Source of the DNA: a virus
Reading direction: 5' to 3' (one strand)
Virus record (IMG/VR): IMGVR_UViG_3300042314_000177
Coordinates: 4,854 to 68,853 of that record
Length of the DNA: 64,000 nt
Of this stretch, positions 2,633 through 37,134 are shown piece after piece. The notes beneath the pieces are model-generated. The model saw nothing but the letters and a program-made list of their open reading frames with translations. It ran no database searches and had not been told where the DNA came from. Position numbers and translations under genes: made by a program. Every line of letters starts with the position of its first letter. Position 1 is the first letter of the stretch.

Positions 2633-4041
2633 TAGTAAGCTAACGGCTCAATCGCCGCCTCTAATCTAGCAAACGACATATGCGCGTCTGATGTGCCTTG
2701 GAATCTCTGTATGCGCCAGTTACGCATCCATCCCTGTTGGAACCAAACCAAACGCTTTGCACGCTGTCCTGTCTTGCCAGCATTGATAAACTTCTGCTGG
2801 CTGTAGGTTTGACCATCAGTGGAATAGCTGGTGTTGATTGTTGGCTCTACGCCATACGCTGCTGAACCAGTTAGGCCAACCAGTTCTAGGTTCTGAATGA
2901 TTGCGCCACGACCTTCGTTGTAAACAATCGTTGTGCCAAACTCCCAACGCACCTTCTGCCCGTAATGGCTTGAGATGTTGCTAACCATATAGCCTACAGA
3001 TGTATTTGTTGGGTCGCCTACCAGCCATTTGTCATAGCAATACACAAGGTTCTGTGCGCGGTACTTTGAAAGACCTACCAAGCTGCTTGTCAGGACAAAC
3101 CACACTGGCTGGCCTAAGTCTTGCGTAGCGGCAGCGTCAAATACAATCGTGCGATCGGGCAAGTGAATATAAAGATGCTCGTGCGCCTTATCGTTACGCG
3201 CCTCTAGCTTGACTGTAGACAGTTGCGCTTCGGTAAACTGAAGCAGGATTTGATCTATCTCTTGCGTGCTAATCTTATTCGTTTTGGCATTGCCGCCAAG
3301 ATAAACGCCTGGAGCTTCATTGAATCCGCTGCCAAGGAAAGCGATGCTCTCTAGATAAACGCAGCAAGCGTGTGTGCCGACAACGCCCTTTTCAATCTGA
3401 GCGCCATCAATGCGCTGGAACGGGAACAGGTCGCCGCCTACGTTGTCATATACTTCGATGGTGTTTCTGTTCAACGCGTATATCTCATTGCGTAGCTTGA
3501 GCAGTGCGACAACGGGATCAGGGTCAATTTCGGACGAACCATACTTCAGGGGATTAACCTGCGTTGGGTCACTTAGTTCCGTGACAATAAGAAACTCGCC
3601 ATCAGTGGTCATGAAGTAGCCATCTACCCAAACCACATCCAGAACGATGCCAAGGTCAGGGTCGGTTACTTGAACAAGGCCAAGGCTAGGCGACCAGTAA
3701 AAAAGGTCTTCGTTTGAAGCGATAGCCAAGCGATCGAAGCTGTAGTCCATCGTTACTAGTTGACCGTTGTTCCCAACGTCACCCAGAATCGTTATTGCAC
3801 CTGTGCTGGACACTATAACGAGCTTAGAACCCATCACGCGATAGCAGACGCCATTCCAGTTGATGCCGCCACGATCAACGCCTGGGCCAGTGCCGTTAGC
3901 CACCAAGCCATCAGCAGGACGCAGGAAGCCTTCGCTAATCCCATTACTCTTTGGCACTGGAATCATATTGACAGGATAGGACGTGCGAAAGTCCGGCCCA
4001 TTGTCCGTATAGATGCCGCTAAGGATTGGAATCTGCGTCAT
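2632..4041 (-). CDS. Tail hub / DNA stabilization protein, P22 gp10-like
   Basis: 469 aa; size, N-terminus and position typical of gp10. Confidence 0.9.
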   Translation of the reverse strand: MTQIPILSGIYTDNGPDFRTSYPVNMIPVPKSNGISEGFLRPADGLVANGTGPGVDRGGINWNGVCYRVMGSKLVIVSSTGAITILGDVGNNGQLVTMDYSFDRLAIASNEDLFYWSPSLGLVQVTDPDLGIVLDVVWVDGYFMTTDGEFLIVTELSDPTQVNPLKYGSSEIDPDPVVALLKLRNEIYALNRNTIEVYDNVGGDLFPFQRIDGAQIEKGVVGTHACCVYLESIAFLGSGFNEAPGVYLGGNAKTNKISTQEIDQILLQFTEAQLSTVKLEARNDKAHEHLYIHLPDRTIVFDAAATQDLGQPVWFVLTSSLVGLSKYRAQNLVYCYDKWLVGDPTNTSVGYMVSNISSHYGQKVRWEFGTTIVYNEGRGAIIQNLELVGLTGSAAYGVEPTINTSYSTDGQTYSQQKFINAGKTGQRAKRLVWFQQGWMRNWRIQRFQGTSDAHMSFARLEAAIEPLAY

Positions 4042-4790: not shown

Positions 4791-4913
4791 TTACTTCTTT
4801 TTCTTCTTGGCTTTGGTCATTGTCATTGCCTTGCCAGCTTTAGCGGCGGCTTTCTTAGCCATCGCCATACCTTTTGCATCGTAGCTGAACTTTTTTCCAC
4901 CGACCATTGGCAT
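4791..4913 (-). CDS. 40-aa Lys/Ala-rich protein (not in ORF track)
   Basis: AGGAG RBS; MPMVGGKKFSYDAKGMAMAKKAAAKAGK...KKKKK; conserved at 40298-40420. Confidence 0.75.
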   Translation of the reverse strand: MPMVGGKKFSYDAKGMAMAKKAAAKAGKAMTMTKAKKKKK

Positions 4914-30195: not shown

Positions 30196-33100
30196 TCATT
30201 GTGGCATTTCTACTGTTGGTGCTTCGTCTGGTTTAGAACCTACAGCTTCTGTGCCACCAATCGTCGCACCCTTTGCTATTGCAGAGTTCAACCAATTGCG
30301 AGCGTCCTTCATGTCGATGCCAACTAACTTAGCGTAGTCGCTGAACTGCTTACTGCCAGCAACACGATTGATGTTGCGCTCAAGCGCATCGCCAGTTGCT
30401 GCGCTTACTGTTAAATCGCGGAATGGTTCGCTACTTATCAGGTTATGTAACTTCTGAGCATTCGTCTTGCCAAGCCGTTGTGCAATCTCAGGGGCAGCAG
30501 CAGCCAAGCCAGCGCCTGCCACAGCCATGAGAGGGCCACCAAGCACGTTGCCGATCATAGCAGCGCCAGCAGCGCCACCAGATGCCATAAGGATTCTGCT
30601 TAGAAGCCTTTCTGAATTTAGCAGTTGTAGCTGATTTGAAGCACCAGTGCGCGTAATAGCTTTGTCAGCATCGCTCAGACGTCGAGACACAGCATATAGA
30701 TCAGTCAAAAGCTTATCACCTTCTGGGCCAACTGCCTCCGCTACTTGCTTATAAACTGCGCTATTAGCTCGTAGGTCACGATAGATGTTTGCGAAGTTTG
30801 TAAAACTAAATGTCTCGTCAGTTGCTTTTGCTGCCTTGAACAGTGCTGAGGTAAGCACCCTACCGCGCATATTTTCTGGGATGATCTTAACAAGAGTATT
30901 TAGCGTTTGAACGTTACCCTTTGTTCCTTGTGTAATTGCACGCTGCATTAGCGGTGCAAGGCTTCCAGATAGGTTCTTGGTGAAGATCCGCTCCATCTGT
31001 TCGCGGCCTTCATACATCTGCTTGAACAGAGTATTTGCTGCACGCTGCTTGTCAGCAATTTCCTTACCCGCGCTTGCCTCAATGAAATTAATTTGATCGT
31101 CAGCCAAAGCTCCGTAAATGTCTTTTAAACGCTTTATGTTGGTATCCGACCAAGGGCCAGTACCATTCTCAAGCGCCTGACCAATCATGTCTCGATATTC
31201 ATTTAGGGCAGTATATGTTGGATTATCCTTAGAGATAGAAGACCATAGTTTCTTTTCTTCTCCAGAAAGGTTCATAATTCCTTTCTTGCCGCCACCTAAA
31301 AGACGAATGCGTTCTTGCAGATAAGATTTAATTTTATCACTGCTTACTGTGCCAGCAGCATCAATTGAATCAGTAACTTCATCACGTAATACACCAGCCT
31401 TCTTACCGAGGCCCTTTTGAGCATTATCCAGTTGGTCGAATACGTCAGCCGACACTTGCGAAATGTCAGTGACAGCATCTAGTTCATCCATTGCCTTATG
31501 AGCGCGTTCCGATGCAGCCTGAACAGTTTCGTTCCAAACTTCCTTTGCCTGAGAAGCGATTTGTGCGCGTGTTAAGCCAACGACTTCTTTCAATTGAGAA
31601 TTATCACTAAGAACATCGACTGGAAGTTCAAGGCCAAGACGATCAGCAGCAGCCTTTGCCTCTGGATTAGTCTTTGCCATCTCAGCCAATTGAGCTCGTG
31701 CCTTTGAAGCACCAGGCCCACGACTAACAGCTTTCTGAGCTAAGTCGATCATTCCTTCAGTGCTAATCTGAGCAGCTACGTCTTCTACCGCTTCACCAGC
31801 GATGGGCGCGGCCATACCAGCAGTAGGCGGAGCCATGCCAGTAGGCGCACCAGTTGGGATATCGAATCCAGTTGGTGACGGAGCCGCTTGTCCGCCCATA
31901 CCAATATCAGGAACCATGCCTGTAGGCACTTCCCCCGTTACATTAACAAATTCACCTTCAGGTATACCAGTCCCATCTGGAGCCATCCCATCTGGAGCAG
32001 CGCCACCTGGCATAAAGCGTCGAGCAGCAGCACCAAATCCTGATTGCAATATGCCTCCAGCAGCAGCGGTTTTTGCACGCTCTAAAGCACTAGCGTCAGG
32101 CCGTCCTTCGCCGCCGCCATAAATGCCACCCTCAACGATGTCTCGTACTACTGGGCCTCCAGGAATAAACTTTGTAAGCTTGTTAACGGGAGACACAATG
32201 CTGCTTGGTATTTCAGCAAGCATAGATGTTATTGGATAATTCTCCATGCTATACTCACCAGCAGCCTGGAGCTTTGCAGCAGCTTCTGGGGACTTAAATA
32301 CTGTAGAAAGAATTTCTTCCCCAAGATTACTTGTGAATCCACGAACAGCAGCTGTACCAATAGCGGTTTCCATTCCTGGAGCAGATGGTTCACGTATGCC
32401 TGAACGATTAGGAGTGAATCTAATTGTGCGCTGTGGATCTTCGCTTAGAGCCTTAACCGTTTCTGCGCTGAGGGGATTTCCACCAGTCAACTCTATAGCC
32501 TTGGCATTAACTTCATCAAGTGTTCTGCCAGCAGCCCACATCCCCTGAAGCTCGCTTGCTATGGAAATATCTTTATCAGTTGAGAACTTATCGCCTTCAG
32601 CAACTTTAAGCACAGGGACGCCACCAGCGGTTTCAGCTTCCGCACCGCCCATGACCTTTAAGAAATTTTCTTTTATTCTGTCTTTGTAAGCGTTAGCAAA
32701 ATCTTCACCAATAACAGCGTCTGGATTAACATTGTAAGTCGGGTCTGTAGAAAGTTGTCTAAACCGATTACGCGCAAAGTCATATGCAAGTCTATCAGAC
32801 GCAATCAAATCTCTCGTTGCGATAAGAAACTGGCGGCGAGCTTGTGGAGATACAAACCCAGATTCTGGGTCATAAAGACCCTTCAAATCAGTTATGGTTC
32901 TATCAATAGAAGTTTGAATATCTTTAGTTGTTTCAAATTCTCCGCCCAACACGCCAGTGCTGGGGTCTTTGATTTTGCTACCTAATGTAATTAAAAAATT
33001 GTCATCAGCTTTGCTTGGATTAGTGCGGCTGGCAATCGTCACCATAGTATCAAATATAGGCAAAACCTTTTGATATTTAACTACAGCAGGCTCAGTTCCA

Positions 33101-33396
33101 TACTTTGAAAAAAGAGATTCAAATTTTGTTCGACCTTCAGTTTCAACACCCTTCTGTTCTTGGCGTTTAGCAAGGTCAGCTGCTTCCTGAGCTAATCGCA
33201 AGCGTTCTTCGTCGCGTGTCTCACCAGAAACCTTGCGACTTTCTTCAGCTATCTGCTCAGGCGACCTTGGAATATCAATGACATTAATTTTCGGAATCGA
33301 AAGCTTTTCACGAGGCACGCCACCCTGAACAATGTATTTTTTGCCATCGCTACCTGTGAGCTGATCACCTTCTTTGTACTTAACTGCCATAATCAA
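30196..33396 (-). CDS. Large DNA ejection protein (P22 gp16 position)
   Basis: 1066 aa, helical, last gene before the tailspike. Confidence 0.7.
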   Translation of the reverse strand: MIMAVKYKEGDQLTGSDGKKYIVQGGVPREKLSIPKINVIDIPRSPEQIAEESRKVSGETRDEERLRLAQEAADLAKRQEQKGVETEGRTKFESLFSKYGTEPAVVKYQKVLPIFDTMVTIASRTNPSKADDNFLITLGSKIKDPSTGVLGGEFETTKDIQTSIDRTITDLKGLYDPESGFVSPQARRQFLIATRDLIASDRLAYDFARNRFRQLSTDPTYNVNPDAVIGEDFANAYKDRIKENFLKVMGGAEAETAGGVPVLKVAEGDKFSTDKDISIASELQGMWAAGRTLDEVNAKAIELTGGNPLSAETVKALSEDPQRTIRFTPNRSGIREPSAPGMETAIGTAAVRGFTSNLGEEILSTVFKSPEAAAKLQAAGEYSMENYPITSMLAEIPSSIVSPVNKLTKFIPGGPVVRDIVEGGIYGGGEGRPDASALERAKTAAAGGILQSGFGAAARRFMPGGAAPDGMAPDGTGIPEGEFVNVTGEVPTGMVPDIGMGGQAAPSPTGFDIPTGAPTGMAPPTAGMAAPIAGEAVEDVAAQISTEGMIDLAQKAVSRGPGASKARAQLAEMAKTNPEAKAAADRLGLELPVDVLSDNSQLKEVVGLTRAQIASQAKEVWNETVQAASERAHKAMDELDAVTDISQVSADVFDQLDNAQKGLGKKAGVLRDEVTDSIDAAGTVSSDKIKSYLQERIRLLGGGKKGIMNLSGEEKKLWSSISKDNPTYTALNEYRDMIGQALENGTGPWSDTNIKRLKDIYGALADDQINFIEASAGKEIADKQRAANTLFKQMYEGREQMERIFTKNLSGSLAPLMQRAITQGTKGNVQTLNTLVKIIPENMRGRVLTSALFKAAKATDETFSFTNFANIYRDLRANSAVYKQVAEAVGPEGDKLLTDLYAVSRRLSDADKAITRTGASNQLQLLNSERLLSRILMASGGAAGAAMIGNVLGGPLMAVAGAGLAAAAPEIAQRLGKTNAQKLHNLISSEPFRDLTVSAATGDALERNINRVAGSKQFSDYAKLVGIDMKDARNWLNSAIAKGATIGGTEAVGSKPDEAPTVEMPQ

Positions 33397-33758
33397 TCAC
33401 CATATCTTTTACGAGAACGACTTACGTCAGGAGCCTTACCCCAACCAGGGAAGGTTATATGTAATGCGCCTTTGTTACTAGCAGCAACGCGAGTGCCTGG
33501 ATATGTTCGTTTTACTAAGGCAATCGCTTCAGACATCTTCATTCCTTTTGGCGGGAAAAAGTCAAGACCGTCACCTTTTTGGTGCGATCCCGTCTTTGTT
33601 GTTGTCAAACCCTGCGCCCTTAATGCATCTTGGTGCTTTTGCGTCCTGAATCCACTTGTTGGACTAAAGCCAAGTGCGCCTAAATCCTTTATTGGGTTAA
33701 TGTTACTACCCTTAAAAGGTACCAGACTGCGTTGTGCTAGTCTGACCTCCTGTATCAT
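33393..33758 (-). CDS. M15-like peptidoglycan peptidase domain, probably expressed by +1 frameshift
   Basis: TSGFRT...SHQKGDGLDF...ALHI; +1 frame relative to the upstream gene. Confidence 0.7.
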   Translation of the reverse strand: MIQEVRLAQRSLVPFKGSNINPIKDLGALGFSPTSGFRTQKHQDALRAQGLTTTKTGSHQKGDGLDFFPPKGMKMSEAIALVKRTYPGTRVAASNKGALHITFPGWGKAPDVSRSRKRYGD

Positions 33759-34467
33759 CAATTGTAAAAGTAACCTCAGGAGGGGCTTCATTGCCAGTAA
33801 CATTACCTATGAAACTCTCAGCATTTACAATTTTACCACCAGGCTGAACGGGAATAAGTTTCATACCCTCAGTTTTTAACCATGTATCTGCTGCCGCCTT
33901 GCCTAAAATACGCACGCGATCCTGATACTCTTTACCTACAGGCGAAAGGTTTTGAGTTATGCCAACAACCTTCTCGTATAAATCTTTGTCGCTTTGAATT
34001 AAAGCTAGTTCCATTGGAAGCACTACAAGGTCAGGGTCTGTATCAAAGGCTGTTATCATATCTTGGGCTGCTTTTGCTTGTTTTTCCTGCCCTACTGTTC
34101 CTTGATAACCTTCCAATTGCTTTTTTAAACGAGCGCGAGCTAACTCACGCTTGCCGTTCTTTACTAAAGTAATGACTTCTGAGCGAAGCAAATTTGCGTT
34201 CTTTTTTTCATCTTCATTCAAAATAGATTCTGACGCCTTGATCTGGTCATTAAGTTCAGGGAACGCCATCGCTAGTCGTGCTAAGTTAGGAGCCGATCTA
34301 TCTTGTTGATACGATGCCATCGCTTGCTTTATCTCCGCAGCGCGTTGCTGCTTTAAGACAGCAGCCTGTTCAGCACGTTGCCTTTGCTCTTGAGCTTGAG
34401 CAAAGTTAAGCGAGCCTTCGAAAGCTGCCATAGGGCTTGCAATGTTATAGTTAAATGGATCAGGCAT
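33712..34467 (-). CDS. DNA ejection protein (P22 gp20 position)
   Basis: Helical Gln/Ala-rich, coupled to the gp7-like gene. Confidence 0.7.
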   Translation of the reverse strand: MPDPFNYNIASPMAAFEGSLNFAQAQEQRQRAEQAAVLKQQRAAEIKQAMASYQQDRSAPNLARLAMAFPELNDQIKASESILNEDEKKNANLLRSEVITLVKNGKRELARARLKKQLEGYQGTVGQEKQAKAAQDMITAFDTDPDLVVLPMELALIQSDKDLYEKVVGITQNLSPVGKEYQDRVRILGKAAADTWLKTEGMKLIPVQPGGKIVNAESFIGNVTGNEAPPEVTFTIDDTGGQTSTTQSGTF

Positions 34468-35183
34468 TAGAATGTTCTCTGGTTTATATTAGACATAGTG
34501 AAGCCACTAGGCCCAATCATTCCGCTTTGTGGTGGCACTGGAGGCGTTGGAACGCCCGATGGAGTCACGGGTGGCTTAAACAGCCCTGGTAGCTGTCCAC
34601 CTATAGTGCCGATTGCCTGATTAAAGGCATTGGCCTGTCCTAATATACCACCAGCTTGTGCTTGTCCCGCTTGCGTATATGCGTTGCCAATATTGGTTGC
34701 AGAGTTAAGTGTATTGGTTGCAACGCCAGCAGCAGAGGCTTGGCCAAGAGTTGAAAGCCCAGCCAAACGTCCATATTGCTGATCTAAAAACTGAGTCAAT
34801 AATGCGGGGCGAAACTGAGCTAATGCGCCCTGAATGTTGCCGCCGCGAAGTCCACCAGTTGCTGATGCGTTTTGCCGAATGGCATCCTCTCCTTGTGCAG
34901 CCAATGCCTGAAAGAATGGGCTTTGCTCTTGCTGCGATATATAGGCTTGCTGTGCTTCTGGGCCTGACAGACCCAATGACGCCATCTGAGCTTGCAAGGC
35001 TGGTGTGCCAGCGGACACATACGGGTTAAGCAGCGTCCGCATTTCCTCACGAGCCGCACGCTGTTCGTCTGCTGTTCTGTCAGCCGCCGCAAGTTGTGTT
35101 TTACTCGCTCTTTTAGAGGCACTAATTGACACCCCTGCGCCGATGATGGCGCTACCGATTGTTGCCGCTGCTACCGCACTCAT
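34467..35183 (-). CDS. DNA ejection protein, P22 gp7-like
   Basis: QNASATGGLRGGN; homologue of 98-724. Confidence 0.85.
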   Translation of the reverse strand: MSAVAAATIGSAIIGAGVSISASKRASKTQLAAADRTADEQRAAREEMRTLLNPYVSAGTPALQAQMASLGLSGPEAQQAYISQQEQSPFFQALAAQGEDAIRQNASATGGLRGGNIQGALAQFRPALLTQFLDQQYGRLAGLSTLGQASAAGVATNTLNSATNIGNAYTQAGQAQAGGILGQANAFNQAIGTIGGQLPGLFKPPVTPSGVPTPPVPPQSGMIGPSGFTMSNINQRTF

Positions 35184-35184
35184 A

Positions 35185-36072
35185 TCAATATCCCCCTATC
35201 GTCACTATCAAAGCCTGACGATAATCTACTGTAATTTCTTCGCCGTTGCTGCCGCCCTTGCATCCTGAGATGTCGCGCATTGCAACAACATATATATCAC
35301 CATTTTCCATACGGAACATCATTGCATTCGGATTCTTAGAATGGTTGGTGTAGCGCCCTGCTGGTGTGCGTAGTCCGCCCATCAATGCTGGCGCAATTAC
35401 CTCAAACTGTGGAATGTTACCAGATGCAAACAATCCTTTGCCTTCGATCTGGCTATCACCCAGCGCAACTTTATACTCGCCATGCGGAAACGGAATCTGG
35501 TCATATTGTAATTCAGATATTTCCCGCACTGTTTCAGCGTCAAAGCCAAACTCCTCAATCGCTGCGTAAAAGTCAGCAATGTCTTCAGAGTGATCAAAGC
35601 TTAACAGCATTTGGTTAAACTTCTTTGATTCCTGCCATGACTCGCTTTTGTCTAAGAACATTTCATCAAGCGTATCAACGTCACGCTCGTCGGTTGAAAA
35701 GATGTTCTGCCAAATCACATCTTCATGGATATAGGCTATCTTGCGGCCAGGAGGTGCGATGAACGACTGTGGGGCCACTAGCTCTGTCTTTGTGCCATCG
35801 TCATTTAAGATAGTCAGGCGACCAGATAGCATATTGTTGAAATGGGCAGTCTTGTGATGATGGCCTACTATATATGAATCCGCTGGCATACGAACTTCAC
35901 GAATGTAAATGCCTGGAGCAAAGCGATGTGTAATAGGGCAGTCAGCTTGTGGTAGGTCAAGAAGTGCCGACTCTAGACGCTGAACATCAGCTTCATTGAA
36001 AGCCTTTGTGAAAGGCTCAATAAGAACGCTTTCAACTGTATCAATGTCTTTTGTGCGGCATATTGCAGTCAC
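35185..36072 (-). CDS. Cupin domain fused to SET domain (putative methyltransferase)
   Basis: HRFAPGIYIRE...GHHHKTAH (cupin); SQIEGKGLFA...RYTNHSKNPN...GEEITVDY (SET). Confidence 0.85.
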   Translation of the reverse strand: MTAICRTKDIDTVESVLIEPFTKAFNEADVQRLESALLDLPQADCPITHRFAPGIYIREVRMPADSYIVGHHHKTAHFNNMLSGRLTILNDDGTKTELVAPQSFIAPPGRKIAYIHEDVIWQNIFSTDERDVDTLDEMFLDKSESWQESKKFNQMLLSFDHSEDIADFYAAIEEFGFDAETVREISELQYDQIPFPHGEYKVALGDSQIEGKGLFASGNIPQFEVIAPALMGGLRTPAGRYTNHSKNPNAMMFRMENGDIYVVAMRDISGCKGGSNGEEITVDYRQALIVTIGGY

Positions 36073-36090: not shown

Positions 36091-36156
36091 TGAGCCACAG
36101 GCTGCTCTTTAAGGCTCTGTGGCAAAACCATATCACAATTTGTTTGCCTTTGGCAA
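36091..36156 (-). promoter_or_regulatory. Promoter plus conserved structured leader of the ejection module (B)
   Basis: TTGCCA-N18-TATGGT then GCCACAG-N16-CTGTGGC-TCA. Confidence 0.6.
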
Positions 36157-36259
36157 TAAAGTATCTTAATTATCATCACGCAGCTTACCTGACGGGGGAC
36201 AGGCGACTCATCATCGCTTGCTGTAATTTTCCTGATGCAGCACTTTGATGAGGTGTTTT

Positions 36260-36742
36260 ATGATTACTCAAGAACGTTTGCGTGAGCTTGTCCGCTATTG
36301 CCCTGAGACTGGCATATTTACCCACCTCGAAAGCAATCGTCGCAAGAAAGCTGGAATGCAAGCTGGATCGTTGCGAAAAGATGGCTATGTTTACATTATG
36401 ATTGATGGGCATAGAACTATGGCTCATAGATTTGCATGGATGTATATAACTGGTAAATGGCCTATTGCTGATATTGACCATGTAGACGGTAATAAATCTA
36501 ACAACTCATTTAATAATCTTCGTGACGTTTCTCGCAGTGTAAACGCTCAAAATCAAAATAGGGCAAAGCGAACAAGCAAAACTGGATACCTAGGTGTTCG
36601 TTATCATGGGCCTAATAAATTTGTTGCCGCAATCTCCGTTAATGGCAAAAGCATTTACCTTGGTGTTTTTGGCGATTCATTAGATGCCCACAATGCTTAT
36701 CTGACAGCGAAACGTAAACTACATGAGGGATGTGTAATTTAA
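36260..36742 (+). CDS. HNH-AP2-like homing endonuclease (B only, antisense)
   Basis: AHRFAW...IDHVDGNKSNN...NLR; SKTGYLGV...YLGVF. Confidence 0.9.
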   Translation: MITQERLRELVRYCPETGIFTHLESNRRKKAGMQAGSLRKDGYVYIMIDGHRTMAHRFAWMYITGKWPIADIDHVDGNKSNNSFNNLRDVSRSVNAQNQNRAKRTSKTGYLGVRYHGPNKFVAAISVNGKSIYLGVFGDSLDAHNAYLTAKRKLHEGCVI

Positions 36743-37134
36743 TCCTCATCTTCACGTTCTTCCCAAGCCTGACACGCTCTCATGTCGTGACAAATAAATT
36801 CAAATTTTTCACAATATCCACGATAACCTGCGTCTACATCCCATGCGTTCCACGGAATTTTATCCATTTTTGATTGCATAAGCGTTGAGTTAATAAAATA
36901 CTCGCAGTTAGAACATCTGCGCCGACGAGCTTCAGTCTCATCCACTTGCATAGCTACACCCAAGGCCACCCAGTATTCAGGATTAGCGCCACGCTCGTTG
37001 CTTGGGTTTTCAGGGCCAAGCATCCAATCGTCAATGACGATCTTCGTGTTCTTCTTGTTCTCAGCAGTGGTGATGAATGGTTCGCTTTCACGCAGACCAG
37101 CAAAGCCTTCAATAATCATCATTGGCTTTTTCAT
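36739..37134 (-). CDS. Cys-rich protein, HiPIP-like cysteine pattern
   Basis: Homologue of 1244-1645; ends CQAWE. Confidence 0.6.
   Translation of the reverse strand: MKKPMMIIEGFAGLRESEPFITTAENKKNTKIVIDDWMLGPENPSNERGANPEYWVALGVAMQVDETEARRRRCSNCEYFINSTLMQSKMDKIPWNAWDVDAGYRGYCEKFEFICHDMRACQAWEEREDED

Follow-up and report, generated by a model that had tools for sequence, protein, structure and literature searches.

A probable programmed +1 frameshift cassette joining a predicted peptidoglycan peptidase to a gene 20-position protein of P22-like podoviruses

The stretch of DNA analyzed here, called the window, comprises 64,000 nt of the IMG/VR virus record IMGVR_UViG_3300042314_000177 (positions 4,854 to 68,853 of that record). 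The subject is a junction on its minus strand, at which a gene for a protein of 251 amino acids (aa) is followed in the +1 frame by a coding sequence for a predicted cell-wall peptidase. According to the list of open reading frames (ORFs), the 251-aa gene (the N-part) and its UAA stop codon occupy 33712..34467. Shortly before its end, the in-gene Gly-Gly codons GGA GGU contain a Shine-Dalgarno (SD)-like GGAGG (33750-33746). A hairpin follows at 33722..33745, based on the minimum free energy fold and on covariation in relatives. Its U.G closing pair is followed by 6 bp and, beyond a bulged A, by 2 bp and a loop of 5 nt; the inverted repeat CAGACU...AGUCUG within it spans 22 nt (33744-33723) and is flanked by U 33745 and G 33722. 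The spacer UACC (4 nt, 33721-33718), whose last three bases ACC would form the E-site codon with UUU in the P site, leads to the putative shift site UUU_U (33717-33714), i.e., UUU at 33717-33715 directly before the 0-frame stop UAA (33714-33712). The +1 frame is open as ORF 33393-33803(-), and from AAG at 33713 it runs for 106 codons until the TGA at 33395-33393. This part (the C-part, 33393..33713) encodes a small domain predicted to be a LAS/M15-type zinc peptidase. GGAGG, hairpin, spacer and UUU_Y (Y being C or U) are referred to as the cassette, which, judged from comparison of sequences, very probably is a programmed +1 frameshift site on UUU_Y stimulated from its 5' side by GGAGG and the hairpin.

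The sequence and hairpin coordinates quoted in the original prediction, the end of the 251-aa ORF and the +1 frame of 106 codons proved exact on the minus strand. It had also claimed that no start codon follows the strong SD, and indeed no ATG, GTG or TTG was present in the +1 frame from GGAGG to UUU. The hairpin was found between SD and shift site as described, with the correction that, the closing pair included, it abuts GGAGG and ends 4 nt before UUU. Further upstream, the +1 frame of the window contains four candidate starts (-86, -74, -44 and -41 nt from UUU), the last of which, ATG 33758, showed by eye no SD at a usable distance. The hairpin of the window folds at -8.5 kcal/mol (z = -3.8 versus shuffles). 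A covariance model built from 46 relatives, with the window excluded, matched the site as its sole match in the 64-kb window (30.9 bits), and only 8 of 10,714 other UUUY sites in related loci passed the cassette scanner described below. Thus, the site in the window is more than a chance occurrence. No curated Rfam model matched positions 33300-34000 on either strand (E <= 1), and no tRNA genes were found in the window. Contigs of three other lake-water metagenome runs spanned the cassette with zero differing letters and zero insertions or deletions (indels), which disfavors an assembly error. The runs identified for this stretch were lake-water metagenomes throughout, with no RNA run among them.

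Relatives were gathered from IMG/VR by protein similarity of the C-part alone, yielding 59 loci with the window as query and 26 and 52 loci with two other C-part types. Together with the window and Pseudanabaena phage Pam1, 139 loci were obtained, with the first set consisting of 60 loci. They were scanned for GGRGG followed, after 0-2 nt, by a stem with five or more pairs and then, 4-6 nt further on, by UUUY. The original prediction had expected relatives to carry GGAGG, hairpin and UUUY ahead of a start-less hydrolase domain and had named the lack of the motif in relatives as evidence against it; the layout GGRGG-hairpin-N4-6-UUUY was present in 120 of the 139 protein-found loci, and in 36 of these 120 no ATG, GTG or TTG occurred in the open +1 frame upstream of UUU (21/60 in the first set). 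The closest relatives, L013 and L014, contained no start codon whatever in the +1 frame. In all 120 cassette loci the hydrolase was encoded in the +1 frame, and in 118 of them the 0 frame stopped 0-4 codons after UUU.

The position of the presumed frame switch can be narrowed down from these loci. The closest +1-frame stop was found 14 nt before UUU, and in five of the 120 loci, the window among them, a stop codon directly follows UUU. The switch is thus confined to the 3' arm of the hairpin, the spacer and UUU; if the frame is changed as the sequences suggest, the change has to take place in the stretch from 14 nt upstream of UUU to the base that follows UUU, where UUU_Y is the sole conserved slippery feature. 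The likeness to the UUU_stop arrangement of prfB that had been proposed therefore applies to the window, but the stop is not conserved (5/120) and the conserved site is UUU_Y. The codon after UUU was CAA in 51, CGC in 34 and CCC in 21 of the 120 loci, most of which then stop 1-4 codons on. UUU_C was present in most loci, and CGN codons were counted in 37/120 loci (CGC 34, CGU 2, CGG 1). The 19 of 139 loci that gave no scanner match comprised L239, L234, L230, L249 and fifteen distant homologues (36-52% identity), about ten of which lie inside long open frames. L239 has the same layout with GAGG in place of GGAGG, while the domain is in frame in L230 and L249.

The hairpin was then compared across relatives. 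In the first set, 42 distinct cassettes chosen blind to structure each folded alone into a hairpin of 6-9 bp, with energies of -6.8 to -14.1 kcal/mol and z values of -3.0 to -5.5. The three sets together contained 74 distinct cassettes with 30 distinct 7-bp stems, including unrelated sequences and a class with a GNRA tetraloop. With the closing pair counted, the spacer in these 74 cassettes was mostly 4 nt, in a minority 5 nt and in one case 6 nt long. In the MAFFT alignments A1 and A2, the two hairpin classes did not share a register. Base pairs were therefore counted with a script and on the fixed-geometry alignment A4, a gap-free alignment of the 46 of 74 cassettes with a 21-nt hairpin and a 4-nt spacer, excluding the cassette of the window. 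In A4, 98.6% of cells were paired, seven of eight pairs changed on both sides (62 cells), and 0/500 shuffles reached any of the five measures. When the partner was moved by 1-3 columns as a slide control, pairing fell to 32-44%. The covariance model, which was built from A4, also found the cassettes of Pam1, of two bacterial assemblies and of unit A, the second unit of the window's own record (see below).

Conservation was also evident for the letters outside the stem. GG.GG was invariant in alignment A1 (42 distinct cassettes), and the sequence was GGAGG in 73/74 and GGGGG in 1/74 distinct cassettes. UUU was likewise invariant in A1, with C or U as the next base in 60/60 first-set loci. When 108 N-parts were aligned (mean column identity of 14%), the sole invariant residues were the Gly pair specified by GGAGG and the Phe specified by UUU. 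At other positions of these genes, GGA accounts for 13-21% of Gly codons; in the GC-rich group, it accounts for 13% of Gly codons and UUU for 24% of Phe codons. This points to constraint at synonymous positions.

The +1-frame domain of the window showed no Pfam match at E <= 0.1, and neither did that of relative L065. However, an alignment of 92 distinct C-part relatives revealed T19, S20, R23, H44 and D51 as invariant, and the C-part contains the zinc-ligand pattern H-x6-D, preceded by S/T-x-x-R, with a later His in the region of the last strand. The AlphaFold2 (AF2) model of the C-part reached a predicted local distance difference test score (pLDDT) of 93.7. In profile comparisons with the PDB, matches were weak, and the best were all LAS/M15 proteins (1lbu, ChiX and T5-type endolysins; E 0.04-0.45, best 0.042), with the stretch containing the zinc-ligand pattern aligned to 1lbu and ChiX at E 0.04-0.18. 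Foldseek matched the model best to LysECD7 (E 0.019) and further to ChiX (E 0.064). The top rows of VIA were LAS proteins as well, i.e., the VldE C-domain with Z 6.0 (root-mean-square deviation 3.1, 74 aligned) and 1lbu with Z 5.8 (3.0, 83), followed by Ply500 with Z 5.6 (3.6, 89), LysB4 with Z 5.5 (3.5, 87) and hedgehog N-domains with Z 5.1; these structural scores are modest, the tool itself regarding values of Z under 8 as not decisive. PF08291 was passed by 4 of 12 representatives chosen from other C-part types, and the M15 C-part types joined one BLAST cluster of 102 (among the pattern matches listed; see below), in which the C-part of the window is linked to PF08291-positive relatives. 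The C-part is therefore called a predicted LAS/M15-type peptidoglycan peptidase. Since the catalytic-type residues are invariant in 92 C-parts and the model is confident, the domain appears to be under purifying selection and hence translated.

The distribution of the cassette was followed with an exact-pattern search for the commonest stem in IMG/VR, which returned at least 114 stretches. Among the matches listed, the cassette was followed in 102 by M15-type domains of several subtypes (99 in the +1 frame and 3 in frame), in seven by SLT transglycosylase domains (4/4 tested representatives passed PF01464) and in two by a third virion-lysin type (phrog_873, phrog_7182); one match ran off its contig. 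Two further matches, L123 and L128, lay inside another gene and were rejected as chance. Relatives alone amounted to 231 cassette loci with 149 distinct 600-nt contexts. The N-parts formed one diverse family, as 137 of 139 distinct sequences fell into one BLAST cluster. The N-part of the window shared 87% identity with that of L013, which has the same C type, and 85% with that of L202, which has a different, 92-aa C type. Conversely, L147 and L164 share a C-part while their N-parts differ. Judged from these sequences, the cassette joins one diverse N-part family to interchangeable peptidoglycan hydrolases.

Fusions of the domain in frame were also observed. Gene_41 of Sphingopyxis phage VSN-002 encodes a 390-aa in-frame fusion without the cassette, and in the database protein P0001 (367 aa) a Gly-rich stretch ending in Phe leads in frame into the domain, joined at the same point. 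P0002, P0003 and L230 (about 450-1760) carry the peptidase in frame behind an unrelated N-terminal portion of ~110 aa, with no cassette; P0002 matched PF08291 at E 4.3e-04, below the cut-off.

Cassettes were furthermore found in named phages and bacteria. In the cultured cyanophage Pseudanabaena phage Pam1, the end of Pam1_14, labeled 'DNA/protein translocase of injectosome' by its depositors, carries a cassette with a covariant stem and UUU_U. The domain at 2971-3279 of Pam1 (L188, ON014753) is unannotated save for the 49-aa ORF Pam1_15. Neither the C-part nor the N-part of the window had a tblastn match among 50,697 phage records; the cultured-phage examples were reached only through another C-part type. 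The assemblies of Sphingopyxis bauzanensis, a Cellvibrionaceae metagenome-assembled genome and Pelagerythrobacter marinus contain the cassette and an M15 domain in the +1 frame, presumably within prophages. A pattern scan of bacterial genomes returned seven stretches, two of which were real junctions; L182-L184 had weak or no model scores, and L180 and L181 look like chance matches. Altogether, carriers of the cassette include phages and presumed prophages from Cyanobacteria, Alpha- and Gammaproteobacteria.

The record of the window contains the cassette twice. Its 68,853 bases consist of two collinear units of ~35.5 kb with 73-89% identity, arranged head to tail (window 1-28200 versus 34700-64000). 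A chimeric or concatenated assembly from two related P22-like phages is a likelier explanation of the 68.9-kb record than a single genome, even though its completeness estimate is 100%. The longest contigs of the runs, at 47-71 kb, are not tied to this virus. Inspection of unit A, left of the window, had been suggested originally, and a cassette was indeed present there (L267 4012-4045, minus strand), between a 310-aa N-part and a 92-aa M15 type. In their own record, the N-part and C-part of the window matched once each, and the unit A cassette is followed by another C subtype. Since both parts of unit A differ from those of the window, one record shows two module combinations around the same signal. 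A 1034-nt contig of another lake sample (run X21, record 6) matched the window only at 33694-33727, a segment of 34 nt that covers the 3' arm of the hairpin and extends to the beginning of the C-part; beyond the match it has a different loop and upstream sequence, still with GGAGG plus stem. This contig may be read as a sign of exchange inside the cassette.

The core of the original prediction, namely the fusion of a peptidase and an ejection protein through a +1 shift that GGAGG and a hairpin stimulate, is supported by this comparative evidence, in which the frame layout, the missing starts, the conservation and covariation of the elements, the purifying selection on the domain and the in-frame fusions were directly observed. 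We infer from it the slip, its efficiency, the roles of the hairpin and of GGAGG and a stoichiometric purpose. tRNA-Phe reads both UUU and UUC. Ribosomes translating the 251-aa gene would reach UUU in the P site, and in a fraction of them tRNA-Phe would re-pair one base forward, on UUU or UUC. Shifted ribosomes would then add the 106-aa LAS/M15 peptidase via a flexible Gly/Ser/Thr-rich linker, giving a protein of ~357 aa, while unshifted ribosomes would stop at once (in relatives within 1-4 codons) and release the 251-aa protein alone. The putative stimulator is a hairpin of 8-9 bp that ends 4 nt before UUU, one base away from the E-site codon, with GGAGG at its 5' foot. The hairpin may re-form behind the ribosome as UUU is reached, perhaps stabilized or positioned by stacking on the helix between GGAGG and the 3' end of 16S rRNA (anti-SD), and may act like the closely spaced SD duplex of prfB in that it drives the mRNA forward while UUU is only weakly held (G.U wobble). 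Such a mechanism is in line with the marked tendency to +1 shifting noted for UUU_Ynn in bacteria, also where no stop codon follows (PMC5009743), and with the stimulation of +1 shifting by synthetic upstream hairpins beside the E site of 70S ribosomes in vitro (PMC6321510).

Several observations weigh against a programmed +1 shift. In vitro, hairpin-dependent +1 shifting at CUU_UGA occurred only without release factor 2 (RF2) (PMC6321510). The A-site codon is usually an ordinary one (CAA, CGC, CCC), so that the slow-decoding partner of classical +1 sites is missing. The window and 84 of the 120 cassette loci possess some upstream start in the +1 frame, and in L060 an ATG is present two codons downstream of the site. 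Since the scanner demanded at least 5 outer pairs and GGRGG, the outer pairing is partly given by construction; independent support for pairing comes from the structure-blind folds, from the slide control and from the peptide, which is wholly different between stem classes although pairing is kept. In L234 (about 1470-1530), the hydrolase occupies the -1 frame; GGAGG and C_CCU_UUC, a heptamer of the classical -1 kind, precede it, and a hairpin is not clearly recognizable. Either the direction of the shift has switched there, or the locus contains an indel. Finally, L081 (832-1632), L147 (3800-4888) and L164 (1598-2647) keep the cassette with the domain in the 0 frame, while their +1 frame closes after 3 codons. 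A shift at these three loci, if still occurring, would shorten the protein, and the cassette is thus not strictly tied to a need for shifting.

Some of these observations would suit a different origin of the C-domain, namely a separate gene translated by internal initiation, with the hairpin bringing GGAGG near a start and a free peptidase of ~106 aa as product. Such a split layout of SD and start is found in T4 gene 38. GGAGG is a perfect SD, the folded hairpin leaves 4-5 nt to the next codons, and the ATG of L060, which is in frame, and the upstream ATG 33758 of the window could serve as starts. Nevertheless, separate initiation is unlikely. The cassette differs from the T4 gene 38 type in that no ATG, GTG or TTG was found shortly after the hairpin in 59 of 60 first-set loci, and the 36 loci mentioned above lack a start throughout the open +1 frame. 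Nor are the codons that follow the hairpin, such as ACU/ACC UUC AAG, usual near-cognate starts. Conservation of the 0-frame UUU and the following Y would be needless for initiation, and the in-frame fusions show the domain working as an extension of the N-part, joined at this very point in P0001 and the three loci with an in-frame domain. In the window, a start at ATG 33758 may still provide a minor route. The exchange of modules raises another explanation, in which the cassette is mainly a recombination linker for hydrolase swaps and the out-of-frame domains are silent or expressed otherwise. One cassette does join different modules, as seen for the N-part of the window and its 85-87% identical counterparts in L202 and L013, for the shared C-part of L147 and L164, for the X21 contig that diverges from the window inside the hairpin, and for the two units of the record. 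A linker, however, needs identity and not pairing, yet 30 different stems keep pairing via double changes, and spacer length and UUU_Y are retained where the stem sequence is wholly different. Moreover, silent domains would decay, whereas the catalytic residues are invariant. That the cassette is a linker in this sense is therefore very unlikely, and recombination at the cassette, which is compatible with frameshifting, more plausibly results from the conservation of the cassette.

Sequence alone cannot separate a +1 shift from a -2 shift, and the four T in a row in the window could invite polymerase slippage; further routes to a frame change would be a hop or a special tRNA that reads four bases. 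RNA polymerase slippage needs long homopolymers, and most relatives have three T (CUUUC), which is too short. For a -2 shift, tRNA-Phe would find no matching codon two bases back (AC/CC then U), no tRNA gene was found in the window, and contigs showed no indel variants at the site. The chance of any such route appears remote. It is hardly conceivable that a sequencing or assembly indel broke a truly single ORF, to which the existence of in-frame versions might point, because the same +1 layout was present in 120 protein-found loci, in 109 of the 114 pattern matches listed and, among relatives, in 231 cassette loci with 149 distinct contexts, and also in the isolate phage Pam1, three bacterial assemblies (two of named isolates) and independent run contigs. 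Programmed +1 frameshifting at UUU_Y thus stands as the favored explanation.

The genes next to the cassette identify the region as that of the ejection proteins. The gene upstream of the N-part gene, which it adjoins, encodes a 238-aa P22 gp7-like ejection protein (34467..35183, minus strand) that matched PF25688 P22_gp7 (E 6.7e-07, 29.8 bits; cut-off 28) and phrog_598 'DNA ejection' (E 3e-34). Directly downstream of the cassette gene, a gene for a 1066-aa protein (30196..33396, minus strand) is located at the P22 gene 16 position; its product matched phrog_770 'DNA transfer protein' (E 5.1e-16) and phrog_6704 (E 1.2e-37). Genes of P22-like podoviruses surround them, including a P22 portal (E 2.7e-156), a P22 coat (E 3e-75), a stabilization protein and pectate-lyase-like tailspikes. 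Since it lies between the gp7-like gene and the gp16-like 'DNA transfer protein' gene, the 251-aa gene occupies the P22 gene 20 position. Just upstream of the ejection genes, a 295-aa protein (35185-36072, minus strand) combines a SET domain (PF00856, E 1.8e-07) with matches to PHROGs named short tail fiber and tail fiber adhesin, an odd pairing of labels. On the opposite strand, 36245-36742(+) is a homing-endonuclease-like ORF with HNH_3 and AP2 (PF13392, E 2.8e-13). It lies inside ~610 bp without a counterpart in unit A, where the alignment jumps from 36139 to 36752, and this stretch looks like a mobile insertion between structural genes.

The N-part itself was less readily assigned. The N-part of the window matched no Pfam or PHROG family, none of 12 representative N-parts was assigned a family by Pfam, and 0/108 N-parts matched PF16928 Inj_translocase (P22 gp20) at E <= 1. 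The link to PF16928 consists of an Atlas lead (score 0.86) and of depositors' labels (Pam1_14, VSN-002 gene_41). The AF2 model of the N-part (mean pLDDT 78.3) is helical over residues 12-200 and has a low-confidence tail (204-251); Foldseek found no match for it below E 1.3. With the model losing confidence from residue 204, the junction is predicted to lie in a linker, and the enzyme would therefore be flexibly tethered.

Programmed +1 shifting is a known kind of event; here, both the architecture of the putative stimulator and the biological use of the shift would be new. Full-text literature searches and term look-ups in PMC8954989, PMC9382816 and the first 300,000 characters of PMC5009743 found no frameshift in an ejection protein, and the full-text searches found no natural 5' hairpin stimulator of +1 shifting. 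On balance, we lean towards a broader proposal, in which the cassette would be the first natural E-site hairpin stimulator of +1 shifting with an SD foot, a compact element of 34 nt that needs no stop or hungry codon and is portable across hosts; it would be the universal joint for hydrolase exchange in P22-like phages, and the shift rate would set the number of enzyme-bearing ejected subunits. If true, recoding would gain a natural counterpart of the effect of engineered hairpins, i.e., a 5' duplex behind the ribosome driving +1 shifts, and the dozens of naturally varied stems, loops and spacers would form a ready-made mutational series. A host-independent +1 cassette of 34 nt would also be a useful tool. 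P22-like podoviruses, which lack a hydrolase on their ejection proteins according to a review that does not contain the word 'frameshift' (PMC8954989), would often carry one hidden in another frame, with the cassette as the exact point where the hydrolase domain is swapped as a module. Such domains, overlooked or cut short by gene callers, are recovered with a simple pattern or a covariance model, and the annotation of Pam1 could be corrected if the shift is true.

Among known systems, prfB is the closest in mechanism. The SD of prfB is placed 3 nt upstream of CUU, and its UGA stop codon is indispensable and serves autoregulation. The likeness comprises a +1 shift by re-pairing of the P-site tRNA, an internal SD-like sequence, a duplex immediately 5' of the E site and, for the window copy in particular, a stop in the A site. 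The hairpin, directly adjacent to GGAGG and reaching to within 4 nt of UUU, takes the position of the SD duplex in prfB. In contrast to prfB, the element beside the E site is here an mRNA hairpin, and GGAGG ends 25-28 nt upstream of the slippery codon linearly, or 4-5 nt if the hairpin is folded out. Furthermore, the slippery codon is UUU, an immediate stop is present in only 5/120 loci, and the purpose would be the addition of a domain rather than feedback. The stimulator most resembles the one described by Huang, Cho and Chang in 2018 (PMC6321510), in which a stable hairpin adjacent to the E site mimics an internal SD duplex and stimulates +1 shifting on 70S ribosomes. Theirs, however, was an engineered, GC-rich hairpin of 12 bp acting at CUU_UGA without RF2, whereas here a natural hairpin of 8-9 bp plus GGAGG precedes UUU_Y.

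With regard to the shift site, the UUU_CGN sites of eukaryotic viruses rely on a rare CGN codon and have low efficiencies, and we know of no 5' structure at them. The cassette differs from them in having CGN in only 37/120 loci and in its strong conserved 5' element. The same tetranucleotide, with tRNA-Phe moving from UUU to UUY, is used in influenza A PA-X, amalgaviruses, Yersinia YopN-TyeA and error-prone UUU-pyrimidine sites of E. coli (PMC5009743, PMC3498833, PMC5052127). As for other virion proteins, PSA makes two products with a common N-terminus by a +1 shift, the longer one with an extra C-terminal domain in the virion (PMC5009743). PSA and kindred sites differ in that they are mostly -1 heptamers, PSA itself using CCC before a stop or a downstream pseudoknot, and in that they neither lie in ejection proteins nor append a cell-wall hydrolase. 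A virion-internal hydrolase that moves in mosaic fashion is known from the N-terminal transglycosylase of T7 gp16 and from variants of gp15 homologues (PMC8954989). In the T7 type the domain is N-terminal and in frame, whereas here it is C-terminal, follows a protein at the gene 20 position and would be reached via a change of frame.

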